From Candidatus Saccharimonadota bacterium (GTDB lineage Bacteria; Patescibacteriota; Microgenomatia; UBA1406; GWC2-37-13): DNA of 32,000 nt. A program made the position numbers and the translations under genes. The notes under the pieces are model-generated. The model was not told the DNA's origin and searched no databases. It worked only from the letters and a program-made list of their open reading frames with translations. The stretch lies in NCBI GenBank assembly GCA_016699265.1, contig CP064967.1:390001-422000 (forward strand). The letters are read 5' to 3'. Of this stretch, positions 2,165 to 29,219 are shown in pieces (the first letter of the stretch is position 1; each line of letters starts with the position of its first letter).

Positions 2165-3556
2165 TTAGGCAGAAACACCCTTGTCTGCGATCTTTTGGTT
2201 CACGAGTTCGTGACCAATTGTTTGCTCGGACTGTGCGAGAGCAGCTTCATTATCATAGTGGAAGCCATGCGTAGTCTTTTCCCAGTAATGTGGGTCTCGA
2301 ATAAGACCGACGACGGCCAACCACCCTGCATAACTCATGGTAAGCCAGTAAAAGGGAACTAAGTATGCAAACTTTACCAGCTCATAGTGTCCCCGCTTCA
2401 CCGATCCTATCATGTAATAGTACATATATAAGAAGTTCCCGAAGATAAAACAGACAATACCCATATATAAGACAGGCGCAGGGAAGAATCGTTCGATAAC
2501 TGGCGCTGCACCACTTCTCCATGTAAAGTAAAGAATGGTCGTACCCCACATAATTGGGTTAATAAGTGTAGATAAAATCTTAGCGCCCATCACCAACTGG
2601 AAAGTGTATTTATGATGTCTTTTTCTACTTCTTTTAAAGAGAGACAGATCGCGTGTATGTACGAGATATGTCTGCATGTATCCTTTGATCCAACGTGATC
2701 GCTGTTTAATCCAGCCAATGAAGTGACTGTTAGCTTCCTCAAGCGTTACTGATTCAAGGATTGCAGTTCTGTACCCCTTTTTAATAAGTCGCATACCAAG
2801 GTCAGCATCCTCGGTGACATTAAATGCGTCCCAGACATCGAGCCTTCGCAGCTCATTAACTCGGAAATGATTCGAGGTGCCTCCAAGGGGAATTGGCACA
2901 TCGGTTGACTGCATACCGGTCAGAACTAGGTCAAACCATAATGAGTATTCTGCCGTAAAGATTCTGGTGAGAAGATTCTGATGAGGATTATAAAAATTCA
3001 GTTTGGCCTGCAGACAGACAATGTTTTTGTCCGACTGTTCGAATGCAAGAACTGCTTTCTTGAGCTGCTTGGGATCGGGCACATCCTCAGCATCATATAT
3101 GACAACGTACTCCCCTGTCGCGAACTTCAGACCATAGTTACAGGCCTTTGGCTTTGTTTTTGGGAGCGAGTGAGGGACAACAATAATCTTTACAAAGCTT
3201 GGAAGTTTCTTTTCGTACTTTGAGATATGTTCAAGGGTCTCCTTATCATCTTCCTCAAGAAGAAGAAGTACCTGCAACTTGTTCTTTGGGTAATCAAGTC
3301 GGCTCATTGCCGAAACGAACTGTGGAATCACCTGCCACTCTTTATACAAAGGACAAAGAATTGTATATTTGGGCCATGTACGCTTTCGGGCCTTATCCAT
3401 CTGATCCGGAGAAATTTTGATTTCAGGCTGTTGAAAGTAGCCTTTTTGCAACATATAGAAATCGAAAAATAGCATAAGGAAATAAAGAGAGGTCAATAGC
3501 GCTATCAGGACAATAAGGGTAATGTTCCACGAAGCTATAAAAGCAATCGTTAGCAA
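2165..3556 (-). CDS. Family 2 glycosyltransferase, processive synthase type (cellulose/chitin/PNAG-synthase-like)
   Basis: The 463-aa ORF has N- and C-terminal TM helices, a DAEDVPDP (D,D,D-type) motif and QRSRWIKG (QxxRW). The track start is TTG. The frame stays open upstream to ~3781 without an ATG/GTG/TTG, so the true start is uncertain. Confidence 0.85.
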   Translation of the reverse strand: MLTIAFIASWNITLIVLIALLTSLYFLMLFFDFYMLQKGYFQQPEIKISPDQMDKARKRTWPKYTILCPLYKEWQVIPQFVSAMSRLDYPKNKLQVLLLLEEDDKETLEHISKYEKKLPSFVKIIVVPHSLPKTKPKACNYGLKFATGEYVVIYDAEDVPDPKQLKKAVLAFEQSDKNIVCLQAKLNFYNPHQNLLTRIFTAEYSLWFDLVLTGMQSTDVPIPLGGTSNHFRVNELRRLDVWDAFNVTEDADLGMRLIKKGYRTAILESVTLEEANSHFIGWIKQRSRWIKGYMQTYLVHTRDLSLFKRSRKRHHKYTFQLVMGAKILSTLINPIMWGTTILYFTWRSGAAPVIERFFPAPVLYMGIVCFIFGNFLYMYYYMIGSVKRGHYELVKFAYLVPFYWLTMSYAGWLAVVGLIRDPHYWEKTTHGFHYDNEAALAQSEQTIGHELVNQKIADKGVSA

Positions 3557-3750
3557 AGTAATGAGGGCGAAAACAAAAATGATTTGATCAGCGCTAAGTC
3601 TATTAAAGGCAGTTTCATGATGTGATAATGTGCTGTGATGAATGTATTCTTTACCTTTGTAATGAAAACCATGACCTTTACGCTTGATGTCTCCATCTGA
3701 AAAAGGGACGGGGTATTGTTTGCGGTATTTTAGTCTAATAGATGAGGATC

Positions 3751-4395
3751 CTATCTCAAGAATGGCCTTAAAAGATTGATTTTAGGAGTTCCCAATTCAC
3801 TTTTTTGAAACATAATATTGTGTGATTTTATTTTATATCCAGCGTCGCGGCTACGCAAAAGAAACTCTAGGTCAAAAGACCACTGTGAAGGTGACAGTAC
3901 CAGTTTATCAAGAATTTCCCGCTTAAACACCTTCATTCCGGACTGCGCATCATGATTGAGGTTGTGGAGTGTTTTGGTAAAGATGAGATGAAAGCCTTGC
4001 TTAAAAATCGGCGCAAAAATGAGGCTTTGTACTGCTTGCGGTTTGCGACCACAATATCTGTCTGGTCATCGAGTAGTCCAACCATATGGGGAAGTTCTTC
4101 CGGCGGATACTGGAGATCTGCGTCAATCATCGCGATGATGTCGTTATTGGCGTAGCTGAATCCTGAATAAGAGAACGAGCCTTTCCTCGTTTTCCCACCT
4201 TCTCATGAATTTCTATCGGATACAACTTAGCTAAAGCTTCAAGTAGAGACACCGTTTTATCGGTAGAGTTATCGTCCACGAAGATGAGTTCGTATTCAAG
4301 CTTACTTTTGTAAAGCTCGAGTGGACCCGATTAACGAGATCCGTAACGGATCCTTCCTCGTTCCATACAGGAACTATGATAGATATTTTTTGCAT
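3751..4395 (-). pseudogene. GT2 glycosyltransferase (polyprenol-phosphate sugar transferase-like), multiply frameshifted
   Basis: It starts MQKISIIVPVWNEEGSVTDLVNR at ATG 4395. GT2 signatures are spread over three frames (YELIFVDDNSTDKT.., IDADLQYPPEELPHMV, FKREILDKL..FDLEFLLR). The track shows only 61- and 65-aa pieces. Confidence 0.65.
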
Positions 4396-4437
4396 GTTTT
4401 AATACTCCAAACAATGATTATACTATAAGACTGAGTT

Positions 4438-4472
4438 AGTATCTAGTATGTAGTATTTAGTATCTAGTATTT
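4438..4472. repeat. Heptad array, five direct AGTATnT units
   Basis: The units read AGTATCT AGTATGT AGTATTT AGTATCT AGTATTT. The array abuts the frame-corrected sortase stop (4471-4473). On the minus strand it lies just upstream of TATAGTATAAT..GGAG..ATG of the degraded GT2. Confidence 0.9.
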
Positions 4473-4511
4473 AGCGCATTGCGACAATCTCATTTTCAAG
4501 AGTTGCAACGA

Positions 4512-5030: not shown

Positions 5031-5036
5031 ATATTT

Positions 5037-5078
5037 CGTATATCGTATTTCGTATACCGTATTCAGTATTACGTATTC
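5037..5078. repeat. Heptad array, six direct CGTATnn units
   Basis: The units read CGTATAT CGTATTT CGTATAC CGTATTC AGTATTA CGTATTC. The array fills the gap between the surface-protein stop (5082) and the sortase ATG (5030). Confidence 0.9.
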
Positions 5079-5688: not shown

Positions 5689-7323
5689 CTAGACAATCTC
5701 GTCACGTTTTTGGCGAACAAAGGAGATCCATTCTTCGATGACCTCTATGATCATCTTGAACGGTGCTTCGATTATGAAATCGAAGATGAAGGTAATGAAG
5801 TTAAGGTGGGATAAGCTTCTGCTCAGGAACTTCCCGACCGATAGTATTGGCATAAAGAAAAAGTCAGTAAACGGTCTGAAGACAGCCTCTCCTTCCGGTA
5901 GTTGGTACTGTTTTGCAGTTTGGCGAATTCTATATGCAAAGAAGGTCACAACCGATACGAAGAACATAAACAAAAGTTTGCTAATAGCATTAAATCCAAA
6001 TATGCTGAGCAGGGCATTAATTAGCCCGAAGGTTATAAAAAACGTGATGGAATAGAAGATGGTAAAGACAAAGATTCTGGATGGATTTTGCACTTTGTTC
6101 TCCTTAGTGACCAGTGAAAGCGTTGTCTCAAACTCATTGTCGCTGTCTAGAATCTCGACAATCCGCTGGTATATTCTCTTTGTATTTTTTGCATCTGGAA
6201 TCTTAGTAAAGGTAGCAATTAGAAACATAAGAAGTGGTGGGATAACCGTATTTACTATTAGCGAAAAATAGTTAACCTCACCATAGATCAAAAGCGATAT
6301 AGGATACTCAAGAATAATAGCCAAAAGCATCTTAGTTATAAAGATGTAAACGATTGCTTTCAGTGCTAGGGTCTGAAGACGTGATTGTGAGGCTGAGTAC
6401 TTCTCTCGACAGATCTGATCCACATCGTTCAGTAGAAGTTCTGGGTTTGCCAAAATGTCTTTAGCTTCTATTCCACGTCGCTGTACAAGGTCGGCAAGAA
6501 TGAGGAAAGGTGGTTTGTGAAAGTTAACAAACCTTCTGAGACGATCGGTGTTTGGGTTGTTTATAATACTGTCAATTTTGTGAAAAAGATTTGGAAGTTT
6601 TGGAATGAGCACATCTATCTGTTGTTCGGTTTGTTGCGACAAAGGTTTCTCAGAAAGAGTAAATAGATGGTAACGAAGATAGGCAATGTCACTTTGATTG
6701 TATCCTTTTTCTATCGCGACAAAAAATGAGGCATTCTTTTCTTCCTCAGTTACCTTTTCGATCTTAATTTTTTTCTTAAGAACCTGAAACATAAAAAAAG
6801 TAAACAGGGAGTGTTGTTTGGCCTCAACTGGCTGCAAGGTTTCCTCTATCTCACTGGACATCATGTGGACGAGAAACTGGCGTATAAAGATGCGATTTGC
6901 GGTTTTCTGACCGATGAGTAGTTGGTCTAAAATTCTTTTATAGATATCGATGATATGCTGGATCTGAATGGCGTGGGGTGCGCCAAGTGATTCATTGGGA
7001 AAGTATCGAGCCCAAAGGAGCTCTCGAATAATATTCTCACCTTCGTTAGTTCCCATTGGATTCATCGACATTCTGCGGCGTAGTATTCGTTCTATGGCAG
7101 CTCGTCGAATTAGGTGTGCGTCACGGTACTCAACCGCATTTCGAAGACGTTCGTAAGCAAGCGCAAAAAAGGTAACAGTTTGAGAAACTGAAATCTTAGA
7201 AAGATCATCGGGAGCTGTGGGAGACTTTATTTTCTTGAACTGCTCAAGAAGCGCCGTTGTATACTTAGAAAGTACAATTTGATCTGCCATAACAGTCCAT
7301 AGTATACTATAAGCCCTCCTCAT
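5689..7323 (-). CDS. Hypothetical membrane protein with a soluble N-terminal half and a multi-TM C-terminal half
   Basis: This is a 544-aa uninterrupted ORF. The C-terminal ~220 aa hold several long hydrophobic segments. I recognised no family motif. Confidence 0.6.
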   Translation of the reverse strand: MRRAYSILWTVMADQIVLSKYTTALLEQFKKIKSPTAPDDLSKISVSQTVTFFALAYERLRNAVEYRDAHLIRRAAIERILRRRMSMNPMGTNEGENIIRELLWARYFPNESLGAPHAIQIQHIIDIYKRILDQLLIGQKTANRIFIRQFLVHMMSSEIEETLQPVEAKQHSLFTFFMFQVLKKKIKIEKVTEEEKNASFFVAIEKGYNQSDIAYLRYHLFTLSEKPLSQQTEQQIDVLIPKLPNLFHKIDSIINNPNTDRLRRFVNFHKPPFLILADLVQRRGIEAKDILANPELLLNDVDQICREKYSASQSRLQTLALKAIVYIFITKMLLAIILEYPISLLIYGEVNYFSLIVNTVIPPLLMFLIATFTKIPDAKNTKRIYQRIVEILDSDNEFETTLSLVTKENKVQNPSRIFVFTIFYSITFFITFGLINALLSIFGFNAISKLLFMFFVSVVTFFAYRIRQTAKQYQLPEGEAVFRPFTDFFFMPILSVGKFLSRSLSHLNFITFIFDFIIEAPFKMIIEVIEEWISFVRQKRDEIV

Positions 7324-7364
7324 ATTTAGGAAGAAGGTGTCTATGTTTGATTGAGCAGGGTTAG

Positions 7365-7378
7365 AATCAATATTGATT
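7365..7378. promoter_or_regulatory. Perfect 14-bp palindrome AATCAATATTGATT
   Basis: It lies in the divergent intergenic region and ends 2 nt before the ATG at 7381. The shape is operator-like. Confidence 0.35.
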
Positions 7379-7380
7379 TT

Positions 7381-8747
7381 ATGAAAGAACGATTACGCGG
7401 TGCAGCAACTGGTAGATCAGACAACGCTCTTTGCGAAAGAATTTGTATCGACTGTCAGCCAAGCTCAAAGCTATTCCAGTTGGCATAGGTCTTCTTGGTC
7501 TTGCAAGTGTGGGAGTCATAACGTGGAGACATCACAGAGAGCTTCTTTACAAAAGTCTCGAACTTGATCCTTATTTTAAAAAATGGTCGATTTGGAGGAG
7601 AGTGTCTGATCGATAGAGAATGGACCCACGATATTTCGGCATTTCTACACAGAATTCATCACGTAAATGGCAGATGCGTCTCTGTTCCCTTCTACCAGAT
7701 ATCTAGAGCGGCCCGATGGTTGGAAGATAATCCTGAGATGAAGACAAAGTTAGGTTCCTAATGAATTTAAACATCTAGATCCTTTTGTAGACATATTTAC
7801 GAGAGATCAGGTGCTTCAATTGGGATGCTAGCCGATGAGGAGATAAAACAAGACTTGAGTCGGAGTATAAGGAGCCCGACTGGTACTCGGAAAAAGAGCT
7901 AAGTGATTTATTTAATCCTACTGAGCCTCTATATTGGGTCGATGCCGGAAGACGGCAGGCAGGAAAATACTCAACTGAAGAGATGGCTAGAATTCTTCTG
8001 ACCGATCCTCACTCCCCGCTTTACAACGTCCTAAAATGGCAGACTAAATGGTGTAAGAGCAGAAATTCTCAACAATGTAAGGGACTATAAAGTTGCAGGA
8101 AATTTATTTAAAGCAGAGCCGGCATCGAAGCCAGATGACCTTAAGGGAAACCGATGATCAAGAGCTCATCATGTAGTAGCAGATATCTTAGCTGGATTCG
8201 TCTTTCGCCGAAAGTTGCTGCTCTTGTGATAAAAGGCAAATATCAGCCGAAGGATATTGGTCTTGCCATTGTTGCCGGTAGCGCAGCGAATGGTGTAAAG
8301 ATGTTAGCTGGCTTATCTGGTGGAAATATTACGAATGGACTGGGACACGACGGACCTCTTACTGCAAGAGATTTATTACGTGCATTATCCAAAAAAGATT
8401 ATCAGATCAAAATAAACTCTGATGGATCGATCTCAACCAACACGGTTTATACAGGATTTATTGGTAGGATTTTAAGCTGGATTACATACGACGAGGTAGG
8501 AGGACAGGACGAGCACCATAAATTTCCAGACAAGATAGCATATACGAGTAGAACCGGTCGAGACGCTATTATTGATGCGCCATGGGGTAGTTTCACATCG
8601 TACTTGGCTCACAACAAGAACTTCGGATTTATAAAGCCCGGAAATGGATTCGATCTGAAGGAAGGAGAGAAACGACCCGACATGCCACATGAAGGCGTTG
8701 AGATTATTCAATCTATCCGAGCCGCTCAGTTTGCGGCATCTTCTTAA
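7381..8747 (+). pseudogene. Membrane fatty-acid-desaturase-like gene remnant (His-box family), fragmented
   Basis: His-box-like strings lie in different frames: WRHHRELL, HRIHH and GGQDEHHKFP (resembling the HxxHH..FP third box). Only the last 197 aa form a long ORF. The family assignment is weak. Confidence 0.35.
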
Positions 8748-8762
8748 AGACGAAACCTCACT

Positions 8763-9986
8763 CTAAGCTCGAAGAGGATATAAATCATTAATTCTGGTCA
8801 GTTCTGCGATCAGCTCTTTTCGATCCATCCCGAGTTGCGCTGCGAACTCACGTGTAGTTGGAGGACACTTTCCTGAGTCAAGCATCGAGAGTATGGTCCA
8901 TTGTTTTCTGGTGAGGCCAAGGTTGCCAATTTCAGCATCTGAAGAAGGGGTTACCAAAGGGGCGTTTCTTCCATGCTCATCTGCAGTAAAATTATCTCGA
9001 AGTAATGCAAGCCCGTCAGTGTAGATACTTTTTGCAAAATCTATGGATCTGCCTGTTGCCTCCGCTATTTCGGACCAAGTTTGTTCCCTACCGTCAAATA
9101 TTCCGGTCCTACGTCGAATGACCTCACCTACAACTCGAGGTAACTCAGCAAGCAAACGCATTGCCTCATCTGAAGCGTGATTTTGGAGCGCAACCTCATA
9201 CGCAGGCGTAGTGCCTCTATCCTCGAGAAACTCCTCCAGAGTATAGTCCTTCTGAGGACCTTTAACCGTTGCAACGGGTTCCTGGATTGATCTGAAATGT
9301 TGCGCTATCTTTGCTTTCAGTACCTCGTCAACTTCTACGATAGGAATTTGCATACGATCTGCGATTTGCTCAGGAGAAATTTGTTCTGTGCCAAATTTCT
9401 GAACAAGATCAGCTACAGTTGTATCAACTGCTTTCGACAGACGATTGAGGTCTTCGGGAAGCCTGACTGGATTCCCCATTTGCCCCACCAGCTTTGATAT
9501 CCTACTGCGAATCTCCCTCGATGAAAAGGTAGTGAATCTAAATCCTCGCTCAACCTCAAATCGCTCAACTGCACGCATCAGGCCTATATTTCCTTCCTGA
9601 ACCAAGTCCTCCAGAGCGACACCTTTCCCTTGGTATCGATTGGCGAGGCAAACCACGTATCTGAGATTGTGAAGTGTAAGGTCGTCGGTAAGATATTGAA
9701 TAGCTGGACCGTTTCCATGCTGCCGAGCCTCGTCAAGCAGACGAAATCTTTGTGCATGTTCGTTATGAGTGTATACCGGAACGCTGCCAATGGCCCGCTT
9801 ATACTCCGCAAAGGATGACACTGCCATTACTTCCTGCAAAGATCTCGGTCGAGTTTCAGTCGTTAATCTCGTTTCCCTTTCGTGTATTGCCATAAAAATA
9901 TCTGAAGAACAGAAAGGTATATTATAGCTTTTTGAGGCTCTATAATCAATTAATAACTCGAAGTATTCATCTTGCACGTTGGCCAC
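8763..9986 (-). CDS. Sigma-70 family factor (group-3-like) with an extra C-terminal HTH segment
   Basis: Region 2 reads LEDLVQEGNIGLMRAVERFEVERGFRFTTFSSREIRSRI. Regions 3 and 4.2 are present (TWSEIAEATGRSIDFAKSIYTDGLALLR). An additional ~70 aa includes LTRKQWTILSMLDSGKCPPTTREFAAQLGMDRKELIAELTRI. The start codon is GTG. Confidence 0.85.
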   Translation of the reverse strand: MANVQDEYFELLIDYRASKSYNIPFCSSDIFMAIHERETRLTTETRPRSLQEVMAVSSFAEYKRAIGSVPVYTHNEHAQRFRLLDEARQHGNGPAIQYLTDDLTLHNLRYVVCLANRYQGKGVALEDLVQEGNIGLMRAVERFEVERGFRFTTFSSREIRSRISKLVGQMGNPVRLPEDLNRLSKAVDTTVADLVQKFGTEQISPEQIADRMQIPIVEVDEVLKAKIAQHFRSIQEPVATVKGPQKDYTLEEFLEDRGTTPAYEVALQNHASDEAMRLLAELPRVVGEVIRRRTGIFDGREQTWSEIAEATGRSIDFAKSIYTDGLALLRDNFTADEHGRNAPLVTPSSDAEIGNLGLTRKQWTILSMLDSGKCPPTTREFAAQLGMDRKELIAELTRINDLYPLRA

Positions 9987-11417: not shown

Positions 11418-12105
11418 TTACAGATAATAACAAGATAACAGAGACAGTGATTCTCCAACGGTATAAACCGATTTCCCCGTCTTTAAACGTACTTCAATAC
11501 TAAGCAATTTTTCATAAAAATCAAGAAGATTTTTGGTATCCCATTTGAAAGCCTGAGCTTTTAGTTTACCTACCTGCCACGACTGCATTCGCGTAGGAAC
11601 CTCACCAAGTCGAATAGCTAGTAGTGATCGAATGTGACGGGTGAGCATGATCTGCATAAAAAGTTCGGTTGTTGGAGTTACAAGACTGTAAAACTCGGCG
11701 AGGAATTTTTGAGGTTTGAAGGGTAACATTGATCGAGAAGCGTAAATACCGATGAACTCAGTTTGAAGTCCTTAACAACTCCCAAATCGGCAGTTTTGAT
11801 CTCCCTTTTCCCATATTTGCTTCCCAGATAAAAACAGAAATCTCAGATGATTTTGAGATCGTTAATAACGACTTATATAAATCGCCGCTTCCTTTCCTTG
11901 TTATTTTTTTTGAGGCATTTTCGAGGAGGTATATTGGTATCTCGAAAAGTGACATAGGTTGAGTATCTTGCAGACTAAGATCTATACATTCTGCAGCTGT
12001 TATCGTTTTTACAGTTGAGCCATGTTTTTCGACATGTAGCTTAAGCACTTCATTCAGGTAGTTTCTTGAGGCGACTGAGTCCTCACCGCAAATAATCGTG
12101 ATCAT
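11418..12105 (-). pseudogene. holA: DNA polymerase III delta subunit, split by one frameshift near 11730-11770
   Basis: The N-terminal fragment reads MITIICGEDSVASRNYL... The C-terminal fragment (..LAIRLGEVPTRMQSWQVGKLKAQAFKW..) lies in another frame. The true ATG is at 12105, because upstream track codons translate the heptad repeat. Confidence 0.6.
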
Positions 12106-12195
12106 CGTATTTCGTATAACGTATAGCGTATAACGTATCAAGTATAAATCATAATGTTTGAATACGGAATACGAGATACCAAATACGGTATACTG
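12106..12195. repeat. Dyad heptad array: 6 x CGTATnn, a 13-nt centre, then 5 x nATACnn
   Basis: The left arm (12106-12147) reads CGTATTT CGTATAA CGTATAG CGTATAA CGTATCA AGTATAA. The right arm (12161-12195) reads AATACGG AATACGA GATACCA AATACGG TATACTG. The array occupies almost the whole spacer between the divergent starts at 12105 and 12201. Confidence 0.92.
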
Positions 12196-12200
12196 AAAAT

Positions 12201-13109
12201 ATGTTTGATCTTGTTTCCATAGGTACTATCTCTGCAGATCTCTACTTTAGCGCCGATGAGCTCACTAAAAAAGACAAGAGGCTCTTTCTTGCTATCGGCG
12301 GGAAGTATCGAAGTGAGGACTTTAGTATGAGTGTTGGTGGCGGTGCCGCAAATGTTGCGATCGGAGGTAGAAAAAATGGTTTGAAAACAGCTGTTGTGGG
12401 TATGATTGGTAATAATGTCTTCCGAAAAGGAATAATGCAGAGATTGCAGATCGCGAAGGTAAACACATCGCATGTTTTATTTAATCAGACCGCAATAAGC
12501 GTTTCTGTAATTTTACTTGATGAAAGCGGTGAGCGAACCGTGATTACCCACCAGTCGTCACACGAGCATATACTTGAAGAAACGCATATTTCGCGCAGGA
12601 ATCTAAATACAAGAGCGGTGTATTTTGGGAATCTTTCACATGTTTCAGTTAAGGAACGAAAGGCTCTAATGAAATCCTTGAAGAATAATGACGTTCAAAT
12701 TTTTGTAAATGTGGGACCTTTGGAATGCTGTAAGCCCAAGCAGTTCATCTCCGATCTACTAGAGTATGCAGATGTTTTAATTGTAAATACGCATGAGTTT
12801 GCCGACATTGTGAAGAAGGATGTAGAGAAGATCGATTTTAAAGAGTCTATTTTATCTTATCTTCCGAATATGAAGGATGCGATAGTCATTGTTACTGATG
12901 GAGAGAGTGGAAGCTATGGGTATGAAGGTGAAAAAGTTTTTTACTGTGCTGTAAAAAAACAAGATCTTGTTGTTGACACTACCGGTGTTGGAGACGGGTA
13001 TACGGCGGGTTTTATAACTTCCTTTCTTCGGTACTCTGATGTTGAGCGAGCGATGAAAGCCGGCACACGATACGCCTCTAAAATAGTCAAGAAAATCGGA
13101 GCAAATTAA
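12201..13109 (+). CDS. PfkB/ribokinase-family carbohydrate kinase
   Basis: This 302-aa ORF carries GGGAANVA and the C-terminal DTTGVGDGYTAGF signature. Confidence 0.85.
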   Translation: MFDLVSIGTISADLYFSADELTKKDKRLFLAIGGKYRSEDFSMSVGGGAANVAIGGRKNGLKTAVVGMIGNNVFRKGIMQRLQIAKVNTSHVLFNQTAISVSVILLDESGERTVITHQSSHEHILEETHISRRNLNTRAVYFGNLSHVSVKERKALMKSLKNNDVQIFVNVGPLECCKPKQFISDLLEYADVLIVNTHEFADIVKKDVEKIDFKESILSYLPNMKDAIVIVTDGESGSYGYEGEKVFYCAVKKQDLVVDTTGVGDGYTAGFITSFLRYSDVERAMKAGTRYASKIVKKIGAN

Positions 13110-13988: not shown

Positions 13989-15629
13989 CTAACTTGCAAG
14001 TTCTTCGAGAAGATTCCGACCTGTCATCTCTCCTGGTTTGAGAATGTCTAGAAGGGCAAGAATAGTTGGAGCAATGTCTGCTAAAATGCCGGAGGGTAAC
14101 TTTACCAAACGGCCTTGTAGTGAACTATGAATGGCAATAAACGGAACAGGATTATCAGTGTGCTCGGTTGAGATCTGACCAGTTGATGGGTTTATCTTCT
14201 CCTCTGCATTACCATGATCTGCGGTGATAAGAACGTAATGACCGAATGAAAGTGCTGTCTGTACAACCTTACCAAGACACTCGTCAAGTACCTTAATAGC
14301 CTTGATTGTAGCCTCGATGCTACCGGTATGGCCAACCATATCAGCGTTCGCAAAGTTGACTAGAATGAAAGGATACTTCTGTTCTTTCATCTTTTGAGTC
14401 AACACATCGGTTAGTTCATAAGCAGACATTTCTGGTTTTTGATCATAGGTAGGAACTTTAGGAGAAGGAATTATAACGCGGTCTTCGTTGGGAAAAGCCG
14501 CTTCACGATGTCCATTGAAATAAAAACCAACAAACCTTTCCTTTTCGGTCTCAGACATACGTAGCTGAGGTATTCCCTTTTCAGATATGAGTCTTCCTAT
14601 TGGTACGCTAACGACATTCGGTGGAAACGCGATCTCAACAGGAAGTTCTTTTTCATATTCCGTCATAGTAACAAAAAGGAGATTCTTTATCTTATCGCCA
14701 CGTTGAAAAGGGGGGTTAAAAGCTTCTGGAGATTTTTTTTCAAGATGGGTCTTTTCGTACTTAATTGCATATGGATCAAAGGATAGTGTTTTATTCGCCT
14801 CTTTTTGAAAATCTTCAAGAACGAAGGCTTTTGTAAGTTCTCTTGGTCGATCAATACGATAGTTAAAATATATTACGGCATCACCTTCTTTAATAATTAC
14901 TGGAGGTTGACCGAGAGTTGTTATGTTTGTGGGCTCAATAAACTCATCTGTAAGATTTTTCACATACGCATTCTGAATAGCTTGCTCTGCAGTCTCTGCA
15001 GTTGCACCGATTCCTTTAGTGAGACAAACATACGCTTTTTCAATTCGTTCCCACCTTCTATCTCGATCCATCGCGAAGTATCGTCCTAGTATCGTTGCAA
15101 TTTTACCTACACCAAGTTGCTTAAGTTTGTCCTCCAGTGGCTTGATAATTTCCATAGCTGATTTTGGGGGAGAGTCTCTTCCATCCGTGATTGCATGTAC
15201 GAATACATTTGAAAGATTATTTTCTTTGGCAAAAAATAAGAGTGCGTGGAGATGGTCAACGCTTGCGTGTACACTACCCTGACCGACGAGACCTATAAAA
15301 TGAAGATTGCCTTTTGTTTTTTTTACATGCTCAACGGCTTTTAAAAATGCTTCTGTTTTGTAATAAGATCCGTCTGCTATCGACATATTAATACGAGGAA
15401 GATCCTGATAGACGATTTTCCCAGCACCAAGATTAATATGCCCGACCTCGGTATTTCCGACCTCAACCGCAGGAAGACCAACTGCCTCACCTGACGCCTT
15501 AAGTTGTGTGTTTGGATAGGTATAAAGGTAGCTATTAATGTTGGTGGGGTTGGCTAGGTAGATAGGATTTCCAGGACCTGGAGGGGCAATTCCAAAACCA
15601 TCAAGGACTATAAGAACGACTGAATTCAT
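13989..15629 (-). CDS. gpmI: 2,3-bisphosphoglycerate-independent phosphoglycerate mutase
   Basis: The conserved N-terminus is MNSVVLIVLDGFGIAPPG. DGRD, ADHGNAE and NFANADMVGHTG motifs are present. The start is the internal ATG 15629. Confidence 0.92.
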   Translation of the reverse strand: MNSVVLIVLDGFGIAPPGPGNPIYLANPTNINSYLYTYPNTQLKASGEAVGLPAVEVGNTEVGHINLGAGKIVYQDLPRINMSIADGSYYKTEAFLKAVEHVKKTKGNLHFIGLVGQGSVHASVDHLHALLFFAKENNLSNVFVHAITDGRDSPPKSAMEIIKPLEDKLKQLGVGKIATILGRYFAMDRDRRWERIEKAYVCLTKGIGATAETAEQAIQNAYVKNLTDEFIEPTNITTLGQPPVIIKEGDAVIYFNYRIDRPRELTKAFVLEDFQKEANKTLSFDPYAIKYEKTHLEKKSPEAFNPPFQRGDKIKNLLFVTMTEYEKELPVEIAFPPNVVSVPIGRLISEKGIPQLRMSETEKERFVGFYFNGHREAAFPNEDRVIIPSPKVPTYDQKPEMSAYELTDVLTQKMKEQKYPFILVNFANADMVGHTGSIEATIKAIKVLDECLGKVVQTALSFGHYVLITADHGNAEEKINPSTGQISTEHTDNPVPFIAIHSSLQGRLVKLPSGILADIAPTILALLDILKPGEMTGRNLLEELAS

Positions 15630-16126: not shown

Positions 16127-16132
16127 ATTATA
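16127..16132 (-). promoter_or_regulatory. TATAAT box 7 nt upstream of the ruvC ATG
   Basis: The minus strand reads AGATACT AGATACC AGATAAT TTATAAT-TGGCTCT-ATG. Confidence 0.4.
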
Positions 16133-16140
16133 AATTATCT

Positions 16141-16154
16141 GGTATCTAGTATCT
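16141..16154. repeat. Two heptad units, GGTATCT AGTATCT
   Basis: These are the same unit type as 4438-4472. They overlap the stop of the 16153-16593 gene. Confidence 0.7.
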
Positions 16155-16593
16155 AGGTCGTGAAGTAATGTTTAGCAGATTTTTTAAATGCAAGAACAAG
16201 TATCGTAATAAACATGACTATACCCAGAGGTGCCGAATTTCCTAATGACATTAATAAGCTAAATATGGCACCGAAGAGAAACAGCTTTCTCATTTTCTTA
16301 TTCAAAGCGAACAAAGTTATGCTTGGAAAAATGGCAAAGTAAGTAAAATAGCCAATAATACGTCCTGGATTATCTAGAAATATGGGATAAGTTGAGTTAT
16401 AAGATTGGCCCTGCAATCTAGCTAGGAAGCCATAGTAAAAGTCCCCAATAAAACCATTTCCAGGTGTATAGCCTACTGCTGGCTGAAATGCTGCAAGTAA
16501 GGAAATGCTTAGCACCAAAAAAATTACAGTGTAGATCTGAATTTTAAGAATTATTTTAATCCACTTTACTGATTTTGAAGGTATTCTAGCCAT
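16153..16593 (-). CDS. Hypothetical membrane protein
   Basis: The 146-aa ORF has about four hydrophobic segments. A near-consensus promoter lies directly upstream. Confidence 0.5.
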   Translation of the reverse strand: MARIPSKSVKWIKIILKIQIYTVIFLVLSISLLAAFQPAVGYTPGNGFIGDFYYGFLARLQGQSYNSTYPIFLDNPGRIIGYFTYFAIFPSITLFALNKKMRKLFLFGAIFSLLMSLGNSAPLGIVMFITILVLAFKKSAKHYFTT

Positions 16594-16716: not shown

Positions 16717-19938
<3,222 letters not shown>

Positions 19939-20227: not shown

Positions 20228-20303
20228 TGGTGGACCTGGGCGGAGTCGAACCGCCTACCTCTTCATTGCAAATGAAGCGTTCAGCCAGGTAAACTTCAGG
20301 CCC
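20228..20303 (-). tRNA. tRNA-Ala(UGC), CCA encoded
   Basis: The sequence is GGGCCTGAAGTTTACCTGGCTGAACGCTTCATTTGCAATGAAGAGGTAGGCGGTTCGACTCCGCCCAGGTCCACCA. It forms a cloverleaf with the G3:U70 pair, and the anticodon loop is TTTGCAA. Confidence 0.92.
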
Positions 20304-22564: not shown

Positions 22565-24935
22565 ATGGTGAAAAAGAACATCGTTTGGTTTGAGGAGGTT
22601 GGAAAAGAGGATGTTGGGCTTGTTGGGGGAAAGGGTGCCAATCTAGGTGAGATGACGAATGCGCGTCTTCCCATACCATACGGATTTGTGCTTACCTCTC
22701 ATGCCTACTTCGAGTTTATTGAACACAATGCTCTTGCGCCTAAGATAAAGAAATTTCTTGACTCAGTAAATACAGACAATCCTCACGAGCTTCAGCAGGT
22801 ATCGAAGGAGATTCAAAAAATGATTCTTGACGCAGATGTTCCTAGCTCAATATCGAAACAGGTTGTCGAATACTACAAAAATCTTACTTTAAAGGAAGAG
22901 GAGTACTATACTAACTCGTCTTCAGTTGCCTCAAAATTTACCAAGGCTTTAAAACATGCCTATCGGCCAGTCGCTGTCGCTGTGAGATCATCGGCCACAG
23001 CAGAAGACCTTCCAGGGGCGTCTTTTGCAGGACAGCAAGAGACATATCTAAACGTTTTCGGTGAAACAGAGCTACTTAAGAAGGTTCAGGAGTGTTGGGC
23101 ATCTCTTTTTACTGAGAGAGCTATCTATTATCGACATCACCAAGGATTTGATCATTTTAAGGTTGGACTTGCTGCGGTAGTTCAGCGTATGGTCCAGTCT
23201 GATAAATCCGGTATCGCTTTTAGTATCGATCCGGTTACCAATGATAAATCGAAGATTGTAGTCGAGGCAATAGTAGGACTCGGTGAGTACATTGTGCAAG
23301 GCAAGGTGACTCCTGATCATTACGAAATAGATAAGAGATCCTTTGTCATAACCAAAAAAGAGGTAAAGTATCAAAATCTCAAATACGTTAGGGCGGGGCA
23401 TGGTAATAGAGAGGTCAAGCTTAGCAAATCACAGGGCTCTAAACTTAAACTTTCTGATCAGGAAATCGTAACTGTAGCGCTATTGGTCAAACAAATTGAG
23501 GACCATTACTTTTTCCCTCAAGATATTGAGTGGGCAATTGAAGGAGATAAGACTTCTATAGTTCAGTCACGACCGATTACTACAATTAAGAATGAAGAAT
23601 CTAGTATCAAGAATAAAGGAAACGAAGATAAAAACAAAAACTCAGATATTGTTTCAACGCAAGCTAAATTGGTGATGCCAATTGTTGTTGGAGCACCAGC
23701 TTCACCAGGAATGGTAACGGGGCCGGTCAGGATTATTCACTCACCCAGTGAAATAGATAAAATATCCAAGGGAGATATTCTGGTTGCGCCACAGACAAAT
23801 CCAGACTACGTTCCTGCAATGAAGAAAGCCGCTGCAATTGTAACGGAAAAGGGAGGAAGAACGTCGCATGCGGCAATAGTTTCACGAGAGCTTGGAATAC
23901 CTGCGGTTGTTGGAGCAGAGTCTGCCACAACGAAACTAAAAAACGGGGAGATAGTTACTGTTAATGGAAGTACCGGTGAGGTTTTCAAAGGTGCGATCAG
24001 TGGTTCCACCTCCGCTAAAGCTTCAGCGAAAGAGCAGGCAAAACTTATCGCCGAAGACCGAAATCTGAAAACTTTAACTAAGGTATATATTAACTTGGCT
24101 GAACCAGAGCAAGCGGAAAAACTCGCCAAACGTCATATCGATGGAATCGCCTTTGCGTGCTGAGTTTATGATAGCGGGTATTGGAACACATCCAAAGTAT
24201 CTAATCACTGGGAGACAACATGAGTTTGTTCGAAATTAACAAACGATCTCATTAAGTTCGTAAAACCATTTAATCCCCGACCAGTTATCTATCGAGCAAC
24301 TGATTTTAAGACAAACGAATATAAAAACCTCAAATGGTGCGGAGTTCGAAAACAGGAAGAAAACCCAATGCTTGGTTTCCGAGTGCTTCACGTTACATTG
24401 CAGATCCGGAAGAGTTTATGTTGGAGCTCGAGGCAATCGCAAATATCTGGAAAATGGGGTACAGTAATCTTCATTTGATGATACCGTTCATCAGAAGACC
24501 ATGGGAACTTATTCAGATCAAAGCAATGATCACAAAGCTGGCCTTTTCAATCTTCCTGGATTTAGATTGCTCATTATGGTTGAGGTTCCAGCGGCTGCAC
24601 TCGAACTTGAGAACTTTCTGAAGATTGGGGTCGATGGTGTCTCGATTGGAACGAATGATTTAACAATGATGCTTCTTGGGTTGACCGGACAATGAACATG
24701 TAGCTTCGGTTTATGACGAAAGATCGGACGCCGTTGTCGAGTACTTGAACATATCGTAAAGACCTGCGTAAAATATAAAGTAAGTTGTTCAATCTGTGGT
24801 CAGGCAGCGTCCGACTACTCAGAGCTAGTAGAGAAATTGGTCATAGGGATTACGAGCGTATCGGTAAATCCAGATGCGATTGAGCGAACAAGAAGATTGA
24901 TCTATGACATTGAGCGAGCACATTTTAAAAACTAG
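22565..24935 (+). pseudogene. ppsA: Phosphoenolpyruvate synthase; N-terminal two thirds open, C-terminal PEP-binding domain multiply frameshifted
   Basis: The N-terminus reads VKKNIVWFEEVGKEDVGLVGGKGANLGEMT. The phosphohistidine loop GGRTSHAAIVSRELGIPAVVG is present. After ~24150 the TIM-barrel strings are spread over all three frames: LRAEFMIAGIGTHP, PVIYRATDFKTNEY, ENPMLGFR, MIPFIRRPWEL, IMVEVPAAAL, GVSIGTNDLT, SICGQAASDY and ITSVSVNPDAIERTRRLI. Confidence 0.75.
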
Positions 24936-24993: not shown

Positions 24994-26265
24994 ATGTTAA
25001 CTATTAAACAAATTACCGCCTACGAAATAATTGACTCAAGAGGTTATCCTACTGTTGAAGCAGCTGCATTAATGAGTAACGGGCGTACTATTAGGACAAG
25101 CGTACCATCTGGAACTTCTGTCGGGAAGTATGAAGCTCTAGAACTACGTGATAAAGATGACAAGAGATTTGATGGAATGGGAGTTACAAAGTCCGTAAGT
25201 ATCATCAATGATGTACTTGCACCTAAATTAGTTGGAGTTTCTCCCAGTAAATTCAGAGAAATTGACGAATGGATGATTAAGGCAGATGGAACTAAGAATA
25301 AGAGCAAGCTAGGTGGCAATACCACTCTTGCTATGTCTCAGCTTTTTATTAAGTCCGCCGCTCAGGAAGAAGGAATGTCTACATACAGTTTTGTTAATAG
25401 AGAGTATAAAAATAGGTTTAAGTCAGAGATGCCGTTACAGAAAATACCTACACCAATCTTTAATATTATTAACGGTGGAAAACATGCGAATAATAATCTC
25501 GAGTTCCAAGAGTTCCAGGTAATTCCTTCATCATCACTCCCCTACACCAAGGCTTATCAGATCGGAGTCGAGATTTTTCACGAACTTAAAAGAGTCTTGC
25601 TTTATAGAAATGCAAATGTCTCGGTTGGAGAAGAGGGAGGATTTGCACCAAACTTCACAACGAACATAGACGCAATTGAGGTAATTAATGAAACAGTACT
25701 TCAAAAAAATCTTAAGATGGGACTCGATATATTTCTTGGACTCGATGTGGCTTCTTCACATTTTTTCAAGGATGATAGATATTATGTAAAGGATAAGCCC
25801 CATCCTTTAACAAAAGATGAGTACCTTGAGTTTATTGTCAGCCTCACAAAAAACTATTCTTTATTATGTCTTGAGGATCCTCTAAATCAAGATGACTTTG
25901 AAGGTTGGTCAAAACTATTAAAAACTATGGCCCGTGACATTTATCTTATTGGGGACGATCTTCTTGCAACTAATAAAGAAAGACTTCTCAGAGCTATTAA
26001 GGATAAAGCATGTAGCATGGTGCTCGTGAAACCAAATCAAATTGGAACTATCTCAGAAATCATGGAGGTTGTTCAGATAGCTAAGGCAAATGATCTTGCC
26101 GTGCTGGTATCCCATAGATCGGGAGAAACAAATGATGACTTTATTGCAGACTTTGCTGTTGGAGTTCAGGCAGACTTCGTTAAGTTTGGAGCACCTTCAC
26201 GAGGTGAGCGCGTCGCAAAGTACAATCGTCTCTGGCAGATTGAACGAGAAAAACTCTCTAAGTAA
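24994..26265 (+). CDS. eno: Enolase
   Basis: MLTIKQITAYEIIDSRGYPTVEAA.. begins at the internal ATG 24994. The motifs SHRSGETND and KPNQIGT are present. Confidence 0.95.
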   Translation: MLTIKQITAYEIIDSRGYPTVEAAALMSNGRTIRTSVPSGTSVGKYEALELRDKDDKRFDGMGVTKSVSIINDVLAPKLVGVSPSKFREIDEWMIKADGTKNKSKLGGNTTLAMSQLFIKSAAQEEGMSTYSFVNREYKNRFKSEMPLQKIPTPIFNIINGGKHANNNLEFQEFQVIPSSSLPYTKAYQIGVEIFHELKRVLLYRNANVSVGEEGGFAPNFTTNIDAIEVINETVLQKNLKMGLDIFLGLDVASSHFFKDDRYYVKDKPHPLTKDEYLEFIVSLTKNYSLLCLEDPLNQDDFEGWSKLLKTMARDIYLIGDDLLATNKERLLRAIKDKACSMVLVKPNQIGTISEIMEVVQIAKANDLAVLVSHRSGETNDDFIADFAVGVQADFVKFGAPSRGERVAKYNRLWQIEREKLSK

Positions 26266-26268
26266 CTT

Positions 26269-26355
26269 CGTATTCCGTATATCGTATCGCGTATTTCGTA
26301 TTCTGTGCTATATTTTGCTCTATACTAGATACGTTATACCAAATACGATATACGA
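26269..26355. repeat. Dyad heptad array: 5-6 x CGTATnn, a centre, then 5 x nATACnn
   Basis: The left arm reads CGTATTC CGTATAT CGTATCG CGTATTT CGTATTC (TGTGCTA). The right arm reads TATACTA GATACGT TATACCA AATACGA TATACGA and ends 3 nt before the ruvA ATG. CGTATATCGTAT (26276-26287) is the exact reverse complement of 26343-26354. Confidence 0.92.
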
Positions 26356-26358
26356 ATC

Positions 26359-26936
26359 ATGATAGGTAGAATAAAAGGCAAACTAGTTGAGATCAATGGG
26401 AACATTGGTCTTGTTGAAACTTCATCAGGGCTTTCGTACGAAGTTTTTCTTCCACCAGCTTTATGCTCATCCGTCTAAACACCGCAGTAAGATTGAGACA
26501 CATCTTAGGTCCGTGACGACGCTCACATTCTGTTTGGCTTAGGATAAAAAGATAAAGAGTTATTTAAGCTTCTACTTTCAGTTTCGAGTTGGACCAAAAA
26601 CTGCATTTCAGGTCACTTATACTGGTAGCGATGAACTGATCTCGGCAGTTCAGACGAATGACGTTGCTATTTTCAAAAATTCCAGGACTCGGAAAGACTC
26701 AAAGAAAATTATTCTTGAACTTTCCAGAAACTGAAGTCGAGTTCGATATGCAAAAATGAATCTAAGCGATGAAGACAAAACGGTAGTTATGCACTTATGG
26801 CTCTTGGTTACAAATCTCAAGAAGCAAAAAACAAGCTCTCAGTAAAATTTCAAAAGGATTATCGATTGAAGAAAAAATAAAAGAAGCCCTCAAAAACACT
26901 GCTACAAAAATAACTTTTAACTGCTCACGCTCATAA
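26359..26936 (+). pseudogene. ruvA: Holliday junction DNA helicase RuvA, heavily frameshifted
   Basis: MIGRIKGKLVEINGNIGLVETSSGLSYEVFLPP is followed by RuvA-like strings in shifting frames: VRDDAHILFG, KDKELFKLLLSVS, VGPKTAFQV, SDELISAVQTNDVAIF, KKIILEL and LSIEEKIKEALKN. Confidence 0.7.
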
Positions 26937-28006: not shown

Positions 28007-28091
28007 CGTAGAGCGTGTAGCGCGCATCGTTTATCGCAAGAATTATCATGCCTTGAGATACACGTTACACGATTTGCGATTCGTGATTTTG
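28007..28091. repeat. Dyad heptad array anchored on CG every 7 nt
   Basis: The left arm reads CGTAGAG CGTGTAG CGCGCAT CGTTTAT CGCAAGA, followed by a 15-nt centre. The right arm reads GATACAC GTTACAC GATTTGC GATTCGT GATTTTG, which re-phased is nnnnnCG. It ends 2 nt before tRNA-Leu(UAA). Confidence 0.8.
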
Positions 28092-28093
28092 TA

Positions 28094-28176: not shown

Positions 28177-28180
28177 CATC

Positions 28181-28252
28181 CAGTAATCAGATTTCGGTTT
28201 TCAGTTTTCAGTCATTATGATCTGACAACTAATCACTGACCACTGATAACTG
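28181..28252. repeat. Dyad heptad array: 5 x CAGnnnn, a 6-nt centre, then 5 x CTGnnnn
   Basis: It reads CAGTAAT CAGATTT CGGTTTT CAGTTTT CAGTCAT | TATGAT | CTGACAA CTAATCA CTGACCA CTGATAA CTG... It lies between tRNA-Leu(UAA) and tRNA-Thr and runs up to the tRNA-Thr 5' end. Confidence 0.88.
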
Positions 28253-28257
28253 TCCCA

Positions 28258-28331
28258 GCCCTTCTAGCTCAATGGCAGAGCAGCTGTTTTGTAAACAGTC
28301 GACTGCAGTTCGATTCTGCAGAAGGGCTCCA
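28258..28331 (+). tRNA. tRNA-Thr(UGU), CCA encoded
   Basis: The structure is GCCCTTC TA GCTC AATGGCA GAGC A GCTGT TTTGTAA ACAGT CGAC TGCAG TTCGATT CTGCA GAAGGGC T CCA. Confidence 0.9.
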
Positions 28332-28473
28332 GCTTATATCTAAAGATAAAGCTGTTTTGTAAACAGTCCCGACCTCAGTCGGGGTTCTGCAGAAGGGCTC
28401 CAGCTTATATCTAAAGATAAAGCTGTTTTGTAAACAGTCCCGACCTCAGTCGGGGTTCTGCAGAAGGGCTCCA
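28332..28473 (+). repeat. Two identical tandem 71-bp units derived from the 3' two thirds of tRNA-Thr
   Basis: The unit is GCTTATATCTAAAGATAAA + GCTGTTTTGTAAACAGT + CCCGACCTCAGTCGGGG + TTCTGCAGAAGGGCTCCA. The second block is identical to the tRNA anticodon arm. The third is a new hairpin replacing the T-arm 5' half. The fourth is identical to the tRNA 3' end including CCA. The copies lie at 28332-28402 and 28403-28473. Confidence 0.95.
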
Positions 28474-28476
28474 GAC

Positions 28477-29099: not shown

Positions 29100-29128
29100 C
29101 TCTTCTTGAATGTTATAATTGATAAATT

Positions 29129-29210
29129 GGGCAAGTGGTGAAACTGGTATACACGCAGTCTTGAGGAGGCTGTGCCGAAAGGCGTGGAGGTTCAAGTCCT
29201 CTCTTGCCCA
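29129..29210 (+). tRNA. tRNA-Leu(GAG), class II
   Basis: The acceptor pairs GGGCAAG with CTTGCCC. The anticodon arm is CAGTC-TTGAGGA-GGCTG. The variable arm contains GCCGAAAGGC, and the T arm is GGAGG-TTCAAGT-CCTCT. Confidence 0.88.
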
Positions 29211-29219
29211 CCCGATGCG

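Follow-up and report, generated by a model that had tools for sequence, protein, structure and literature searches.

Non-coding spacers in a 32,000-nt stretch of contig CP064967.1 (the window in the following) hold arrays of 7-nt units with the core CGTAT or, read on the other strand, ATACG. Two such arrays, facing away from each other, fill the spacer between the divergent genes holA and a PfkB-family carbohydrate kinase at 12106-12195. The arrays belong to the known class of intergenic heptanucleotide tandem repeats, found here in the candidate phyla radiation (CPR) and on the lineage's own -10 core. Tentatively, with a probability of roughly 0.45, we explain them as heptad arrays which arose by slippage from a heptamer with the -10 core in the promoter or leader zone. 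Units ending in T would then be -10 boxes, and the copy number would tune starts and spacing.

According to the preliminary description, the holA-PfkB spacer consists of heptads, a 13-nt centre, and inverted heptads, and the sequence at 12106-12195 reads exactly like this. The arms face the genes as claimed, with one arm ending 0 nt from the holA ATG and the other 5 nt from the PfkB ATG. The spacer and its neighbours are as follows.

11418-12105, minus strand: probable holA (DNA polymerase III delta), with a TIGR01128 match (E=3e-9) under the curated cut-off.

12106-12147, minus strand: left arm of six CGTATnn heptads, on the plus strand CGTATTT CGTATAA CGTATAG CGTATAA CGTATCA AGTATAA, identical in 12 other assemblies. 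The coding strand of holA reads TTATACT TGATACG TTATACG CTATACG TTATACG AAATACG, directly followed by the ATG at 12105.

12148-12160, no strand: 13-nt centre ATCATAATGTTTG, from reading the sequence.

12161-12195, plus strand: right arm of five heptads, AATACGG AATACGA GATACCA AATACGG TATACTG, in front of the PfkB ATG at 12201.

12189-12194, plus strand: TATACT, putative -10 box of PfkB, 6 nt from the ATG, as expected for a leaderless transcript.

12201-13109, plus strand: PfkB-family carbohydrate kinase (PF00294).

The TATACT at 12189-12194 is the probable -10 box of PfkB, judging from its conservation in relatives and from the usual distance between TATA[AC]T and start codons in the clade. 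The dyad centre contains a rightward -10-like CATAAT (12150-12155), and the neighbouring unit at 12141-12147 reads TATACT leftward. From these motifs, we infer that the centre may have a promoter role. A consensus promoter scan found no canonical -35/-10 pair at the dyad.

Similar arrays had been reported at 5037-5078 and 26269-26355, with variants near 4438-4472 and 16141-16154, and all of them are real by Tandem Repeats Finder. The program returned period-7 arrays with 3-6 copies at 4437-4474, 5032-5078, 12106-12147, 12160-12197, 16136-16156, 26267-26303, and 26321-26355. A lag scan for self-matches added three further arrays: two at tRNA genes (28054-28093 and 28178-28254) and one within an open reading frame (ORF; 23580-23623).

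4439-4473, minus strand: five heptads, AGTATnT on the plus strand and nnATACT on the coding strand, upstream of TATAAT (4417-4422) and of the glycosyltransferase ATG (4395).

5037-5078, minus strand: six heptads filling the junction between hyp182 and the sortase gene (Tandem Repeats Finder and pattern match). The coding strand reads GAATACG TAATACT GAATACG GTATACG AAATACG ATATACG AAATAT-ATG, with the ATG at 5030.

16136-16156, minus strand: three heptads, TATCTnG on the plus strand, directly upstream of a TATAAT (16127-16132) which lies 7 nt before the ruvC ATG (16119).

26269-26303, plus strand: five CGTATnn heptads, the left arm of a second dyad, which begins 3 nt past the stop codon of enolase (26263-26265) and is not directed at any gene start.

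26321-26355, plus strand: five heptads, CTATACT AGATACG TTATACC AAATACG ATATACG, 3 nt from the ruvA ATG (26359).

28054-28093, plus strand: weak period-7 run GATnnnn directly upstream of tRNA-Leu (28094).

28178-28254, plus strand: dyad of a second heptad family, first TCAGTTT-type and then CTGAnnA-type, which fills the spacer between tRNA-Leu and tRNA-Thr and abuts the tRNA-Thr 5' end (28258).

The segment at 23580-23623 is a period-7 run of AAGAATn within the coding region of pyruvate phosphate dikinase and is kept in other strains (8564-8607 in L139).

The lag scan is independent of any motif, and a segment was called at 19 or more self-matches out of 28. It gave nine segments at lag 7 compared with 0.10 in shuffles, and none at lags 4-6 or 8-13; lag 14 mirrors lag 7. 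Altogether, the window has 9-10 period-7 arrays versus about 0.1-0.5 in shuffles. The pattern CGTATNN in four consecutive units (up to two mismatches) matched 13 times and was absent from 100 dinucleotide-preserving shuffles. Hence, the claimed 7-nt periodicity exceeds shuffled controls within the 32-kb window, where lag 7 alone is enriched. All but one of the segments (8-9 of 9-10) are intergenic, the exception being the run in the dikinase ORF.

Composition differs sharply between the positions of a unit. In the 27 CGTAT-type units, GTAT is present without exception (27/27), 21 units have C at position 1, and there is hardly any base preference at positions 6-7. Deviations from the majority base of an array amount to 6/135 in the core versus 22/54 at spacer positions (Fisher p=3e-9). 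The sigma-70 -10 box of a leaderless promoter has A at -11 and T at -7 and ends about 5-8 nt before the start codon. G, C, or A stands at -7 in 17 of 22 CGTAT-type units; T is found there only in the PfkB-proximal unit, in the most distal units of the holA and ruvA arms, and in the sortase arm's second unit. All four CGTAT-type arms have a TATAC-type unit in the place closest to the -10 position. The preliminary description had proposed a stack of -10 boxes driving leaderless transcription. For the PfkB-proximal TATACT, which is conserved at 6 nt, this proposal holds up. For the non-terminal units, it is unsupported because most end in G, C, or A where -7 needs T.

We then consider how genes of this lineage start. 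For 76 genes, taken from the window and from five related genomes, we examined the 60 nt upstream of the start codon. Of the 43 occurrences of TATA[AC]T, 38 end 5-16 nt ahead of the start, most often at 5-6 nt; about half of the lineage's genes have the box in this range. The favoured form is (G)TATA(A/C)T, mostly without a recognisable -35 element, and tRNA genes carry TATAAT about 9 nt before the mature 5' end. GGAG, GAGG, and AGGA are not enriched at Shine-Dalgarno distance (3/76 genes). The arrays were correctly described as free of a Shine-Dalgarno-like run, but as the 76 genes show no enrichment either, the missing Shine-Dalgarno sequence is a property of the lineage and not of the arrays. 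Leaderless mRNAs are usually inferred from a -10 box some 6-7 nt ahead of the start codon. By this reasoning, the distance between box and start suggests that many mRNAs of the lineage begin at or just before the AUG. This implies that leaderless or near-leaderless transcripts may be widespread in a Roizmanbacteria-like CPR clade, and the Shine-Dalgarno-less gene starts are probably largely leaderless. A 16S rRNA gene, which would show the anti-Shine-Dalgarno tail, was not found in any locus compared. The literature searched gave no description of gene-start architecture in CPR; as far as we could find, the Shine-Dalgarno-less architecture of this lineage is documented here for the first time.

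Array orientation follows the gene starts. About 200 kb of the clade contain 11 arrays with at least three ATAC at exact 7-nt spacing, where chance predicts about 0. Nine are sense-oriented before a start codon, in agreement with the link to gene starts proposed earlier; the distance is 1-7 nt for eight of them and 43 nt for the ninth. The genes behind them are PfkB, holA, and ruvA (two each), ruvC, the sortase gene, and the glycosyltransferase gene. The two exceptions are the orphan arm after enolase and an array in an unannotated gap of the related genome L134. Since 9/11 arrays are oriented in this way, the dyad at 12106-12195 is most simply read as two sense-oriented arrays, one for each divergent gene.

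The holA-PfkB spacer was compared with those of four species (L133, L134, L136, and L138) whose PfkB is 66-75% identical to that of the window. Their spacers are 45-86 nt long. GGTATACTGAAAAT-ATG precedes PfkB in the window, L134, and L138, which places TATACT 6 nt before the ATG, the modal distance of the clade. L133 has GGTATACTGAAGGT-ATG with 12/14 bases kept, and L136 alone lost the PfkB-proximal unit. The remainder of the spacer is not alignable among the four relatives. That relatives would keep periodicity and dyad layout proved correct in part: period-7 GTAT runs adjoin holA in 4/4 relatives, but ATAC runs adjoin PfkB in L134 and L138 only. The spacer of L138 reads CAT CCTGTAT TCGGTAT ACAGTAT ... 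CAATACT CAATACT TGATACA GTATACT GAAAAT ATG.

The ruvA array can be followed further. In L631 (PfkB 50% identical), the spacer between eno and ruvA reads TAATACT AGATACT TTATACT ACATGCT AAATACT AACTC-ATG and aligns unit by unit with window positions 26321-26358. Three ATAC units precede ruvA in L632 and L634 (five in the window), while L636, a Roizmanbacteria genome, has overlapping genes and no eno-ruvA spacer. The left arm at 26269-26303 is absent from L631, L632, L634, and L636. From these alignments, the ruvA array is older than the other arrays. The 51-nt sortase array stands where relatives have a spacer of 2 or 27 nt, and the 80-nt tRNA dyad where L632 and L634 have 12 nt. By the same kind of comparison, both are new in this species.

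Turnover is also visible among strains. Strain L125 is short of exactly two units (14 nt) of the sortase array. The tRNA dyad (28178-28257) differs at 6/80 positions from L140, L141, and L143, with an overall divergence of about 0.6%. The holA-PfkB and eno-ruvA arrays have a constant length among 10-12 strains. Array load is uneven between species, with several in L134 and none above threshold in L133, L136, L630, L632, L634, and L636. At 14123-14221, 14827-14879, and 4264-4310, L134 has period-8 arrays (GAGTTCAC / CGTTAACN, with GTTCAC/GTTAAC cores) around the starts of iPGM and RuvC, where one unit contains the iPGM start codon, and AATTTGA heptads before the gene of an S24 (LexA-like) peptidase.

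Homologues of PfkB and RuvA place the source of the window in Patescibacteria/CPR, near Candidatus Roizmanbacteria; its RuvA shares 68% identity with a protein from Roizmanbacteria. More than 30 independent assemblies contain the same species, among them the NCBI metagenome-assembled genomes GCA_049645585.1 and GCA_044224595.1, and the arrays appear identically in them. The 95-nt holA-PfkB spacer is identical in 12/12 other copies from other assemblies, and nothing similar to it was found in plasmid or phage collections. Hence, the arrays are not assembly or vector artefacts. A metagenome scan with PfkB returned identical copies only. The strains diverge by only 0.5-1%, and the identical spacer lies within a locally near-identical block. 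Strain-level diversity is therefore uninformative on constraint.

Compared with other assemblies of the same species, the window shows many small deletions, by which holA, ruvA, and other genes are split. Two homopolymer-T deletions (11706 and 11806) split holA, which is intact in other strains (229 aa). There are 29 indels in ruvA at 26459-26830, and the glycosyltransferase at 3556-4395 is spread over four frames. These 1-3-nt deletions are probably assembly errors and not real pseudogenes. An alternative genetic code was considered and rejected, as stop-codon reassignment fails to explain the broken ORFs and the breaks are 1-3-nt deletions against other assemblies. The genetic code is the standard one, and the G+C content of the window is about 41%.

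Cross-phylum searches put the CGTAT unit into perspective. With one genome per species, the pattern CGTATNN in four units matched at least 120 loci in Planctomycetota, Chloroflexota, Bacteroidota, Acidobacteriota, Omnitrophota, CPR, and others. Among the matches listed, many are dyads and many abut start codons. As controls, we searched viral contigs with four-unit patterns of same-composition cores or of other periods.

CGTAT, period 7: 28 loci.

GCTAT, period 7: 119 loci.

CTGAT, period 7: at least 120 loci.

CGTAT, period 6: at least 119 loci.

CGTAT, period 8: 45 loci.

GCTAT, period 8: 53 loci.

Other cores and periods are thus equally common or commoner in viral contigs, and we dropped the idea of a special cross-phylum CGTAT family. 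In view of these controls, the matches show a general abundance of short-period arrays and no conserved family. In the 102 cross-phylum arrays listed, a start codon within 40 nt is found for 34 in nnATACG versus 16 in CGTATnn orientation, and a stop codon precedes CGTATnn in 29 versus 17. The arrays of the window have the same polarity. Such a bias fits an orientation filter on the sense strand that favours A ahead of starts and U behind stops.

The preliminary description had taken the organisation for an undescribed one. The literature contradicts this, as heptamers at start codons (PMC4679880; bioRxiv 10.1101/2022.06.06.494920), inverted heptamer pairs (PMC4692102), and operators of direct and inverted heptads (PMC9499535) have all been published. 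Heptameric simple-sequence repeats are an over-represented type of long simple-sequence repeat in many prokaryotes, as summarised in PMC4692102 with reference to Mrazek 2007, and they frequently stand at start codons. The features of this class were found here: 7-nt head-to-tail units, several copies, many non-coding loci, and variation by whole units. The main core CGTAT/ATACG is not identical in sequence to the cyanobacterial short tandemly repeated sequences STRR1-3, to TAACTGA, or to GGGAATC, and CGTATTG-type arrays were not found in the literature searched. We know of no demonstrated function for heptamer repeats at prokaryotic start codons. The closest systems are compared below.

TAACTGA (Beggiatoaceae, some Cyanobacteria, and Bacteroidetes): MacGregor 2015 reported 169 sets of 2-6 copies each, mostly a few nt from start codons without ribosome-binding sites, and proposed translational regulation (PMC4679880). 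Shared features are the tandem 7-nt units, many sets per genome, the mostly forward orientation at the position of the ribosome-binding site, and genes without Shine-Dalgarno sequence (PMC4679880). In the window, the likeness extends to the tRNA-spacer dyad, which has a CTGAnnA / TAACTG-type core at 28218-28254. The main core here is ATAC(G/T) and coincides with the -10 box, the phylum is CPR, the arms are commonly paired as dyads, and the units have two free positions, whereas TAACTGA copies are near-perfect and only one indirect repeat was reported in BOGUAY (PMC4679880).

Cyanobacterial STRR, including those of Calothrix (Mazel 1990, as reported in PMC4692102), and Nostoc: In Nostoc, heptamers overlap the recO start codon, similar arrays precede at least 12 genes, and deletion had modest regulatory effects (bioRxiv 10.1101/2022.06.06.494920). 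As in the window, contiguous heptamers lie 30-100 nt from, or overlap, starts or -10 regions at many genes, among them the DNA repair genes recF and recO. Their units are CCCCAGT, GAC(C/T)AAT, and TTTTGAA, the arrays can be much longer, and no link to leaderless genes is known to have been described for them.

Xanthomonas GGGAATC: These repeats vary among close relatives and sometimes form inverted pairs (PMC4692102). They resemble our arrays in being intergenic, in having some stem-loop-capable inverted pairs, and in varying in length and sequence at the same site in close relatives, but they are G-rich and G-quadruplex-prone, whereas the units here are AT-rich and -10-like (PMC4692102).

V. 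cholerae TTTTGAT: The ctxAB promoter carries heptads whose copy number differs by strain and correlates with activity (bioRxiv 10.1101/2021.05.14.444153). Promoter heptads are common to both systems. Unlike the arrays of the window, these occupy a single locus upstream of -35 and are bound by ToxR, ToxT, and H-NS.

Omega/ParB of pSM19035: The heptad consensus of omega is WATCACW. It is a plasmid-borne system with a known protein, whereas the units of the window are nnATAC(G/T) and occur beside several unrelated cores. The protein binds arrays of 7-10 heptads in mixed orientation and needs at least four contiguous units (PMC9499535). Contiguous 7-bp units, direct and inverted, in promoter regions are shared, with 4-10 for omega and 5-6 per arm here, and each omega heptad is the site of one protein dimer (PMC9499535, PMC2441792).

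The slippage explanation builds on the fact that the unit nnATAC[G/T] carries the core of the lineage's -10 box, (G)TATA(A/C)T. Arrays would grow by replication slippage of a heptamer that contains this core. The lineage has no Shine-Dalgarno sites, and only 5-16 nt separate its -10 box from the start codon; any repeat that expands out of the -10 region must therefore come to lie against the ATG, sense-oriented. T-ending units (TATACT) would act as real -10 boxes, and G-ending units would be extra copies, lying ahead of the promoter or within a short untranslated leader. The copy number could then tune start-site choice, leader length, or the spacing of divergent promoters. At co-directional junctions, the addition of a second, inverted arm would create a hairpin-capable spacer. 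Two arrangements are conceivable: a leaderless mRNA with the proximal unit as its -10 box, or a promoter in a distal T-ending unit or in the centre, with a leader of 25-40 nt made of G-ending units. The conservation of the PfkB-proximal unit supports the leaderless arrangement for PfkB. Unit-wise turnover speaks for slippage: the two-unit indel between strains, the three to five ruvA units of different species, and the arrays that are new here at junctions of only 2-12 nt in relatives. Other cores and period-8 arrays at equivalent positions in relatives speak for a general process and not for a single specific reader. The location of some arrays next to tRNA genes or in these short junctions counts against a plain stack of -10 boxes. 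Since the repeat core coincides with the -10 box of the lineage, the explanation would give the arrays a concrete origin in slippage and a testable function in choosing leaderless or leadered starts.

Several findings weigh against slippage from the -10 core. GTAT is invariant (27/27) with positions 6-7 almost random, a pattern not expected from simple slippage and subsequent neutral decay. It suggests that a core of 4-5 nt is under constraint and is hard to square with neutral slippage. Most units have G and not T at -7 and should be poor -10 boxes. In four species, only 2-5 nt separate the last ruvA unit from the ATG, which leaves too little room for a leaderless start from this unit. With an array alignable at 50% PfkB identity, the ruvA locus is older and more conserved than expected of a free-running microsatellite. 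Lastly, neither the arm at 26269-26303 nor the dyad in the tRNA spacer belongs to a start codon.

Among the other explanations, we give most weight to the arrays being functionless by-products of slippage, which we still regard as unlikely. With heptamers as the favoured long repeat unit of prokaryotes, they would be tolerated in a compact genome only in the few non-coding spacers, and their orientation would be filtered by base composition near starts and stops. Whole-unit indels among strains and the varying presence and copy number among relatives are as expected, and so is the tRNA-spacer dyad, which evolves at about 10x the genome average (6/80 vs 0.6%). Same-composition cores are also commoner than CGTAT in viral contigs (28 vs 119 and at least 120). 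Neutrality does not account for the invariant core beside random spacer positions, for the unit-by-unit conservation of the ruvA array in distant species, or for the strict period of 7 with 5-6 units in most arms and strong polarity to gene starts. If the arrays were neutral, they would be only a curiosity of genome composition.

A protein which reads a 4-5-bp core every 7 bp and polymerises on DNA, on the model of the ribbon-helix-helix (RHH) protein omega/ParB of pSM19035, is likewise improbable. The arrays would be its operators or landing sites in a small regulon of ruvA, ruvC, holA/PfkB, and the sortase gene. Contact bases are expected to be invariant with free spacers between them, as seen for GTAT. 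Arms of 5-6 contiguous units in both orientations lie in promoter zones and recur before ruvA, ruvC, and holA-PfkB in several species with different copy numbers, and omega/ParB itself functions with four or more contiguous heptads in any orientation (PMC9499535). Pfam and NCBIfam scans found no candidate binder in the window, including no RHH or other DNA-binding domain in its unassigned ORFs. Two candidates near the arrays were rejected: the sigma factor encoded at 8763-9986 has an ordinary r2/r3/(r4) layout, and two 146-aa ORFs are mutually unrelated and show no DNA-binding domain. A single reader also conflicts with the base after ATAC, which varies among species (G, T, C/A), with the arrays that arose de novo in a tRNA operon, and with the copy number, which is polymorphic in the species. 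Several readers would be needed, as ACTGA, AATTTGA, AATTTTC, and period-8 GTTAAC cores occupy equivalent positions in the same small genomes.

We rate action at the RNA level as unlikely, too. Here, the promoter would be in the centre or in the distal T-ending unit, and nnAUACG would form an unstructured, A-rich leader of 25-40 nt that replaces the Shine-Dalgarno sequence or is bound by a TRAP- or HutP-like oligomer. The sense-specific orientation agrees with this, as do three arms in which the sole T-ending, -10-competent unit is distal or second-most distal and followed by 4-5 G-ending units. Dyad centres contain -10-like hexamers, and isolated arms form only weak folds (-5.7 and -9.7 kcal/mol). 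Transcription is probable for the sortase and tRNA arrays, since they lie within co-transcribed units in relatives. MacGregor 2015 proposed the same for heptamers without Shine-Dalgarno sequence (PMC4679880). Against a leader role, the proximal unit serves as the conserved -10 box of PfkB, so that transcription from this promoter misses the array. Some arrays stand before tRNA genes, whose products are not translated, and those at 4439-4473 and 16136-16156 would be outside the transcript because they are upstream of good TATAAT boxes. Sites of the TRAP or HutP type consist of spaced (G/U)AG triplets in a transcribed leader, accompanied by the gene of the cognate protein. The arrays have no such triplet motif and no NAG triplet periodicity; their core is AUAC.

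The DNA and RNA versions share the idea of an oligomeric reader, an omega/RHH-style DNA binder or a ring-shaped RNA binder, which takes one ATAC heptad per subunit and controls Shine-Dalgarno-less, leaderless genes (ruvA, ruvC, holA/PfkB, and others) of Roizmanbacteria-like CPR bacteria. This is a speculative proposal to which we assign a small probability. The footprint of such a reader would be an invariant 4-5-nt core, free spacers, 5-6 units per arm, and a ruvA array conserved unit by unit. As the window has invariant GTAT with free spacers and an old, conserved ruvA array, a periodic protein reader of DNA or RNA stays a rival to slippage. Should a reader protein or phased start sites prove true, the interest of the arrays would rise sharply.

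It is doubtful that the dyads act as hairpins or cruciforms, whether to terminate transcription, to be processed by RNase III, or to insulate neighbouring genes. The predicted folds of all three are long interrupted hairpins, much more stable than those of shuffled sequences (-26.9, -28.5, and -21.9 kcal/mol; z -4.6, -5.0, and -3.6). Two dyads stand between genes of the same direction, right behind a stop codon or the 3' end of a tRNA, and CGTATnn arms tend to follow stops in other phyla among the matches listed. However, the arms pair via the 5-nt core only, with 2x2 internal loops, and the dyad at 12106-12195 lies between divergent genes, so both of its arms are unlikely to be on one transcript. 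Arrays with a single arm (5037-5078 and 4439-4473) and single-arm orthologues (L631) exist. No T-run follows any dyad (none after 26355 or 28254), and no terminator-like site was found at 11900-12400. A gathering search of Rfam 15 gave no match at the arrays; only sub-threshold chance matches to eukaryotic hairpin families appeared.

REP (repetitive extragenic palindromic) sequences and the BIMEs (bacterial interspersed mosaic elements) built from them are imperfect palindromes of 20-40 nt with a conserved GTAG/CTAC head and a RAYT (REP-associated tyrosine transposase) gene. The REP-like element that the preliminary description had offered as an alternative, or a miniature mobile element, spread through the genome, is largely refuted and highly improbable: the several dispersed copies with similar architecture, the new insertions at junctions that are short in relatives, and the Y1 transposase gene beside PfkB in L630 would suit it, but the arrays share no unique sequence beyond words of 12-16 nt (about two units), the window has no terminal repeats, target duplications, RAYT gene, or Y1 or other transposase gene, L630 is without arrays, and copy number changes in place by single units. 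The transposase gene in L630 (10947-11591; IS200/RAYT-like, PF01797) adjoins PfkB; this relative has a genome of 1.24 Mb and no heptad arrays in the 21 kb examined.

Some further observations concern the rest of the window. The 23S rRNA gene (16717-19936, minus strand) has a group I intron at 17048-17290 and is preceded by tRNA-Ala (20228-20303) without an adjacent 16S rRNA gene, which is typical of CPR. Other strains have an additional 73 nt at the position of window 16671. The 1.4 kb at 7262-8693, including the ORF at 8154-8747, are strain-specific, and other strains have a different gene of 439-464 aa there.

At 28282-28479, 2.8 tandem 71-nt copies of the 3' part of tRNA-Thr(TGT) follow the gene (28258-28331). 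In place of the T arm, the extra copies have the hairpin CCCGACCTCAGTCGGGG, followed by a 22-nt tail. These tandem copies look like a repeated duplication of an att site at a tRNA gene. A slightly divergent second copy of the 3' half of tRNA-Leu(GAG) stands at 29214-29270, directly after the gene (29128-29213), and is possibly another integration scar.

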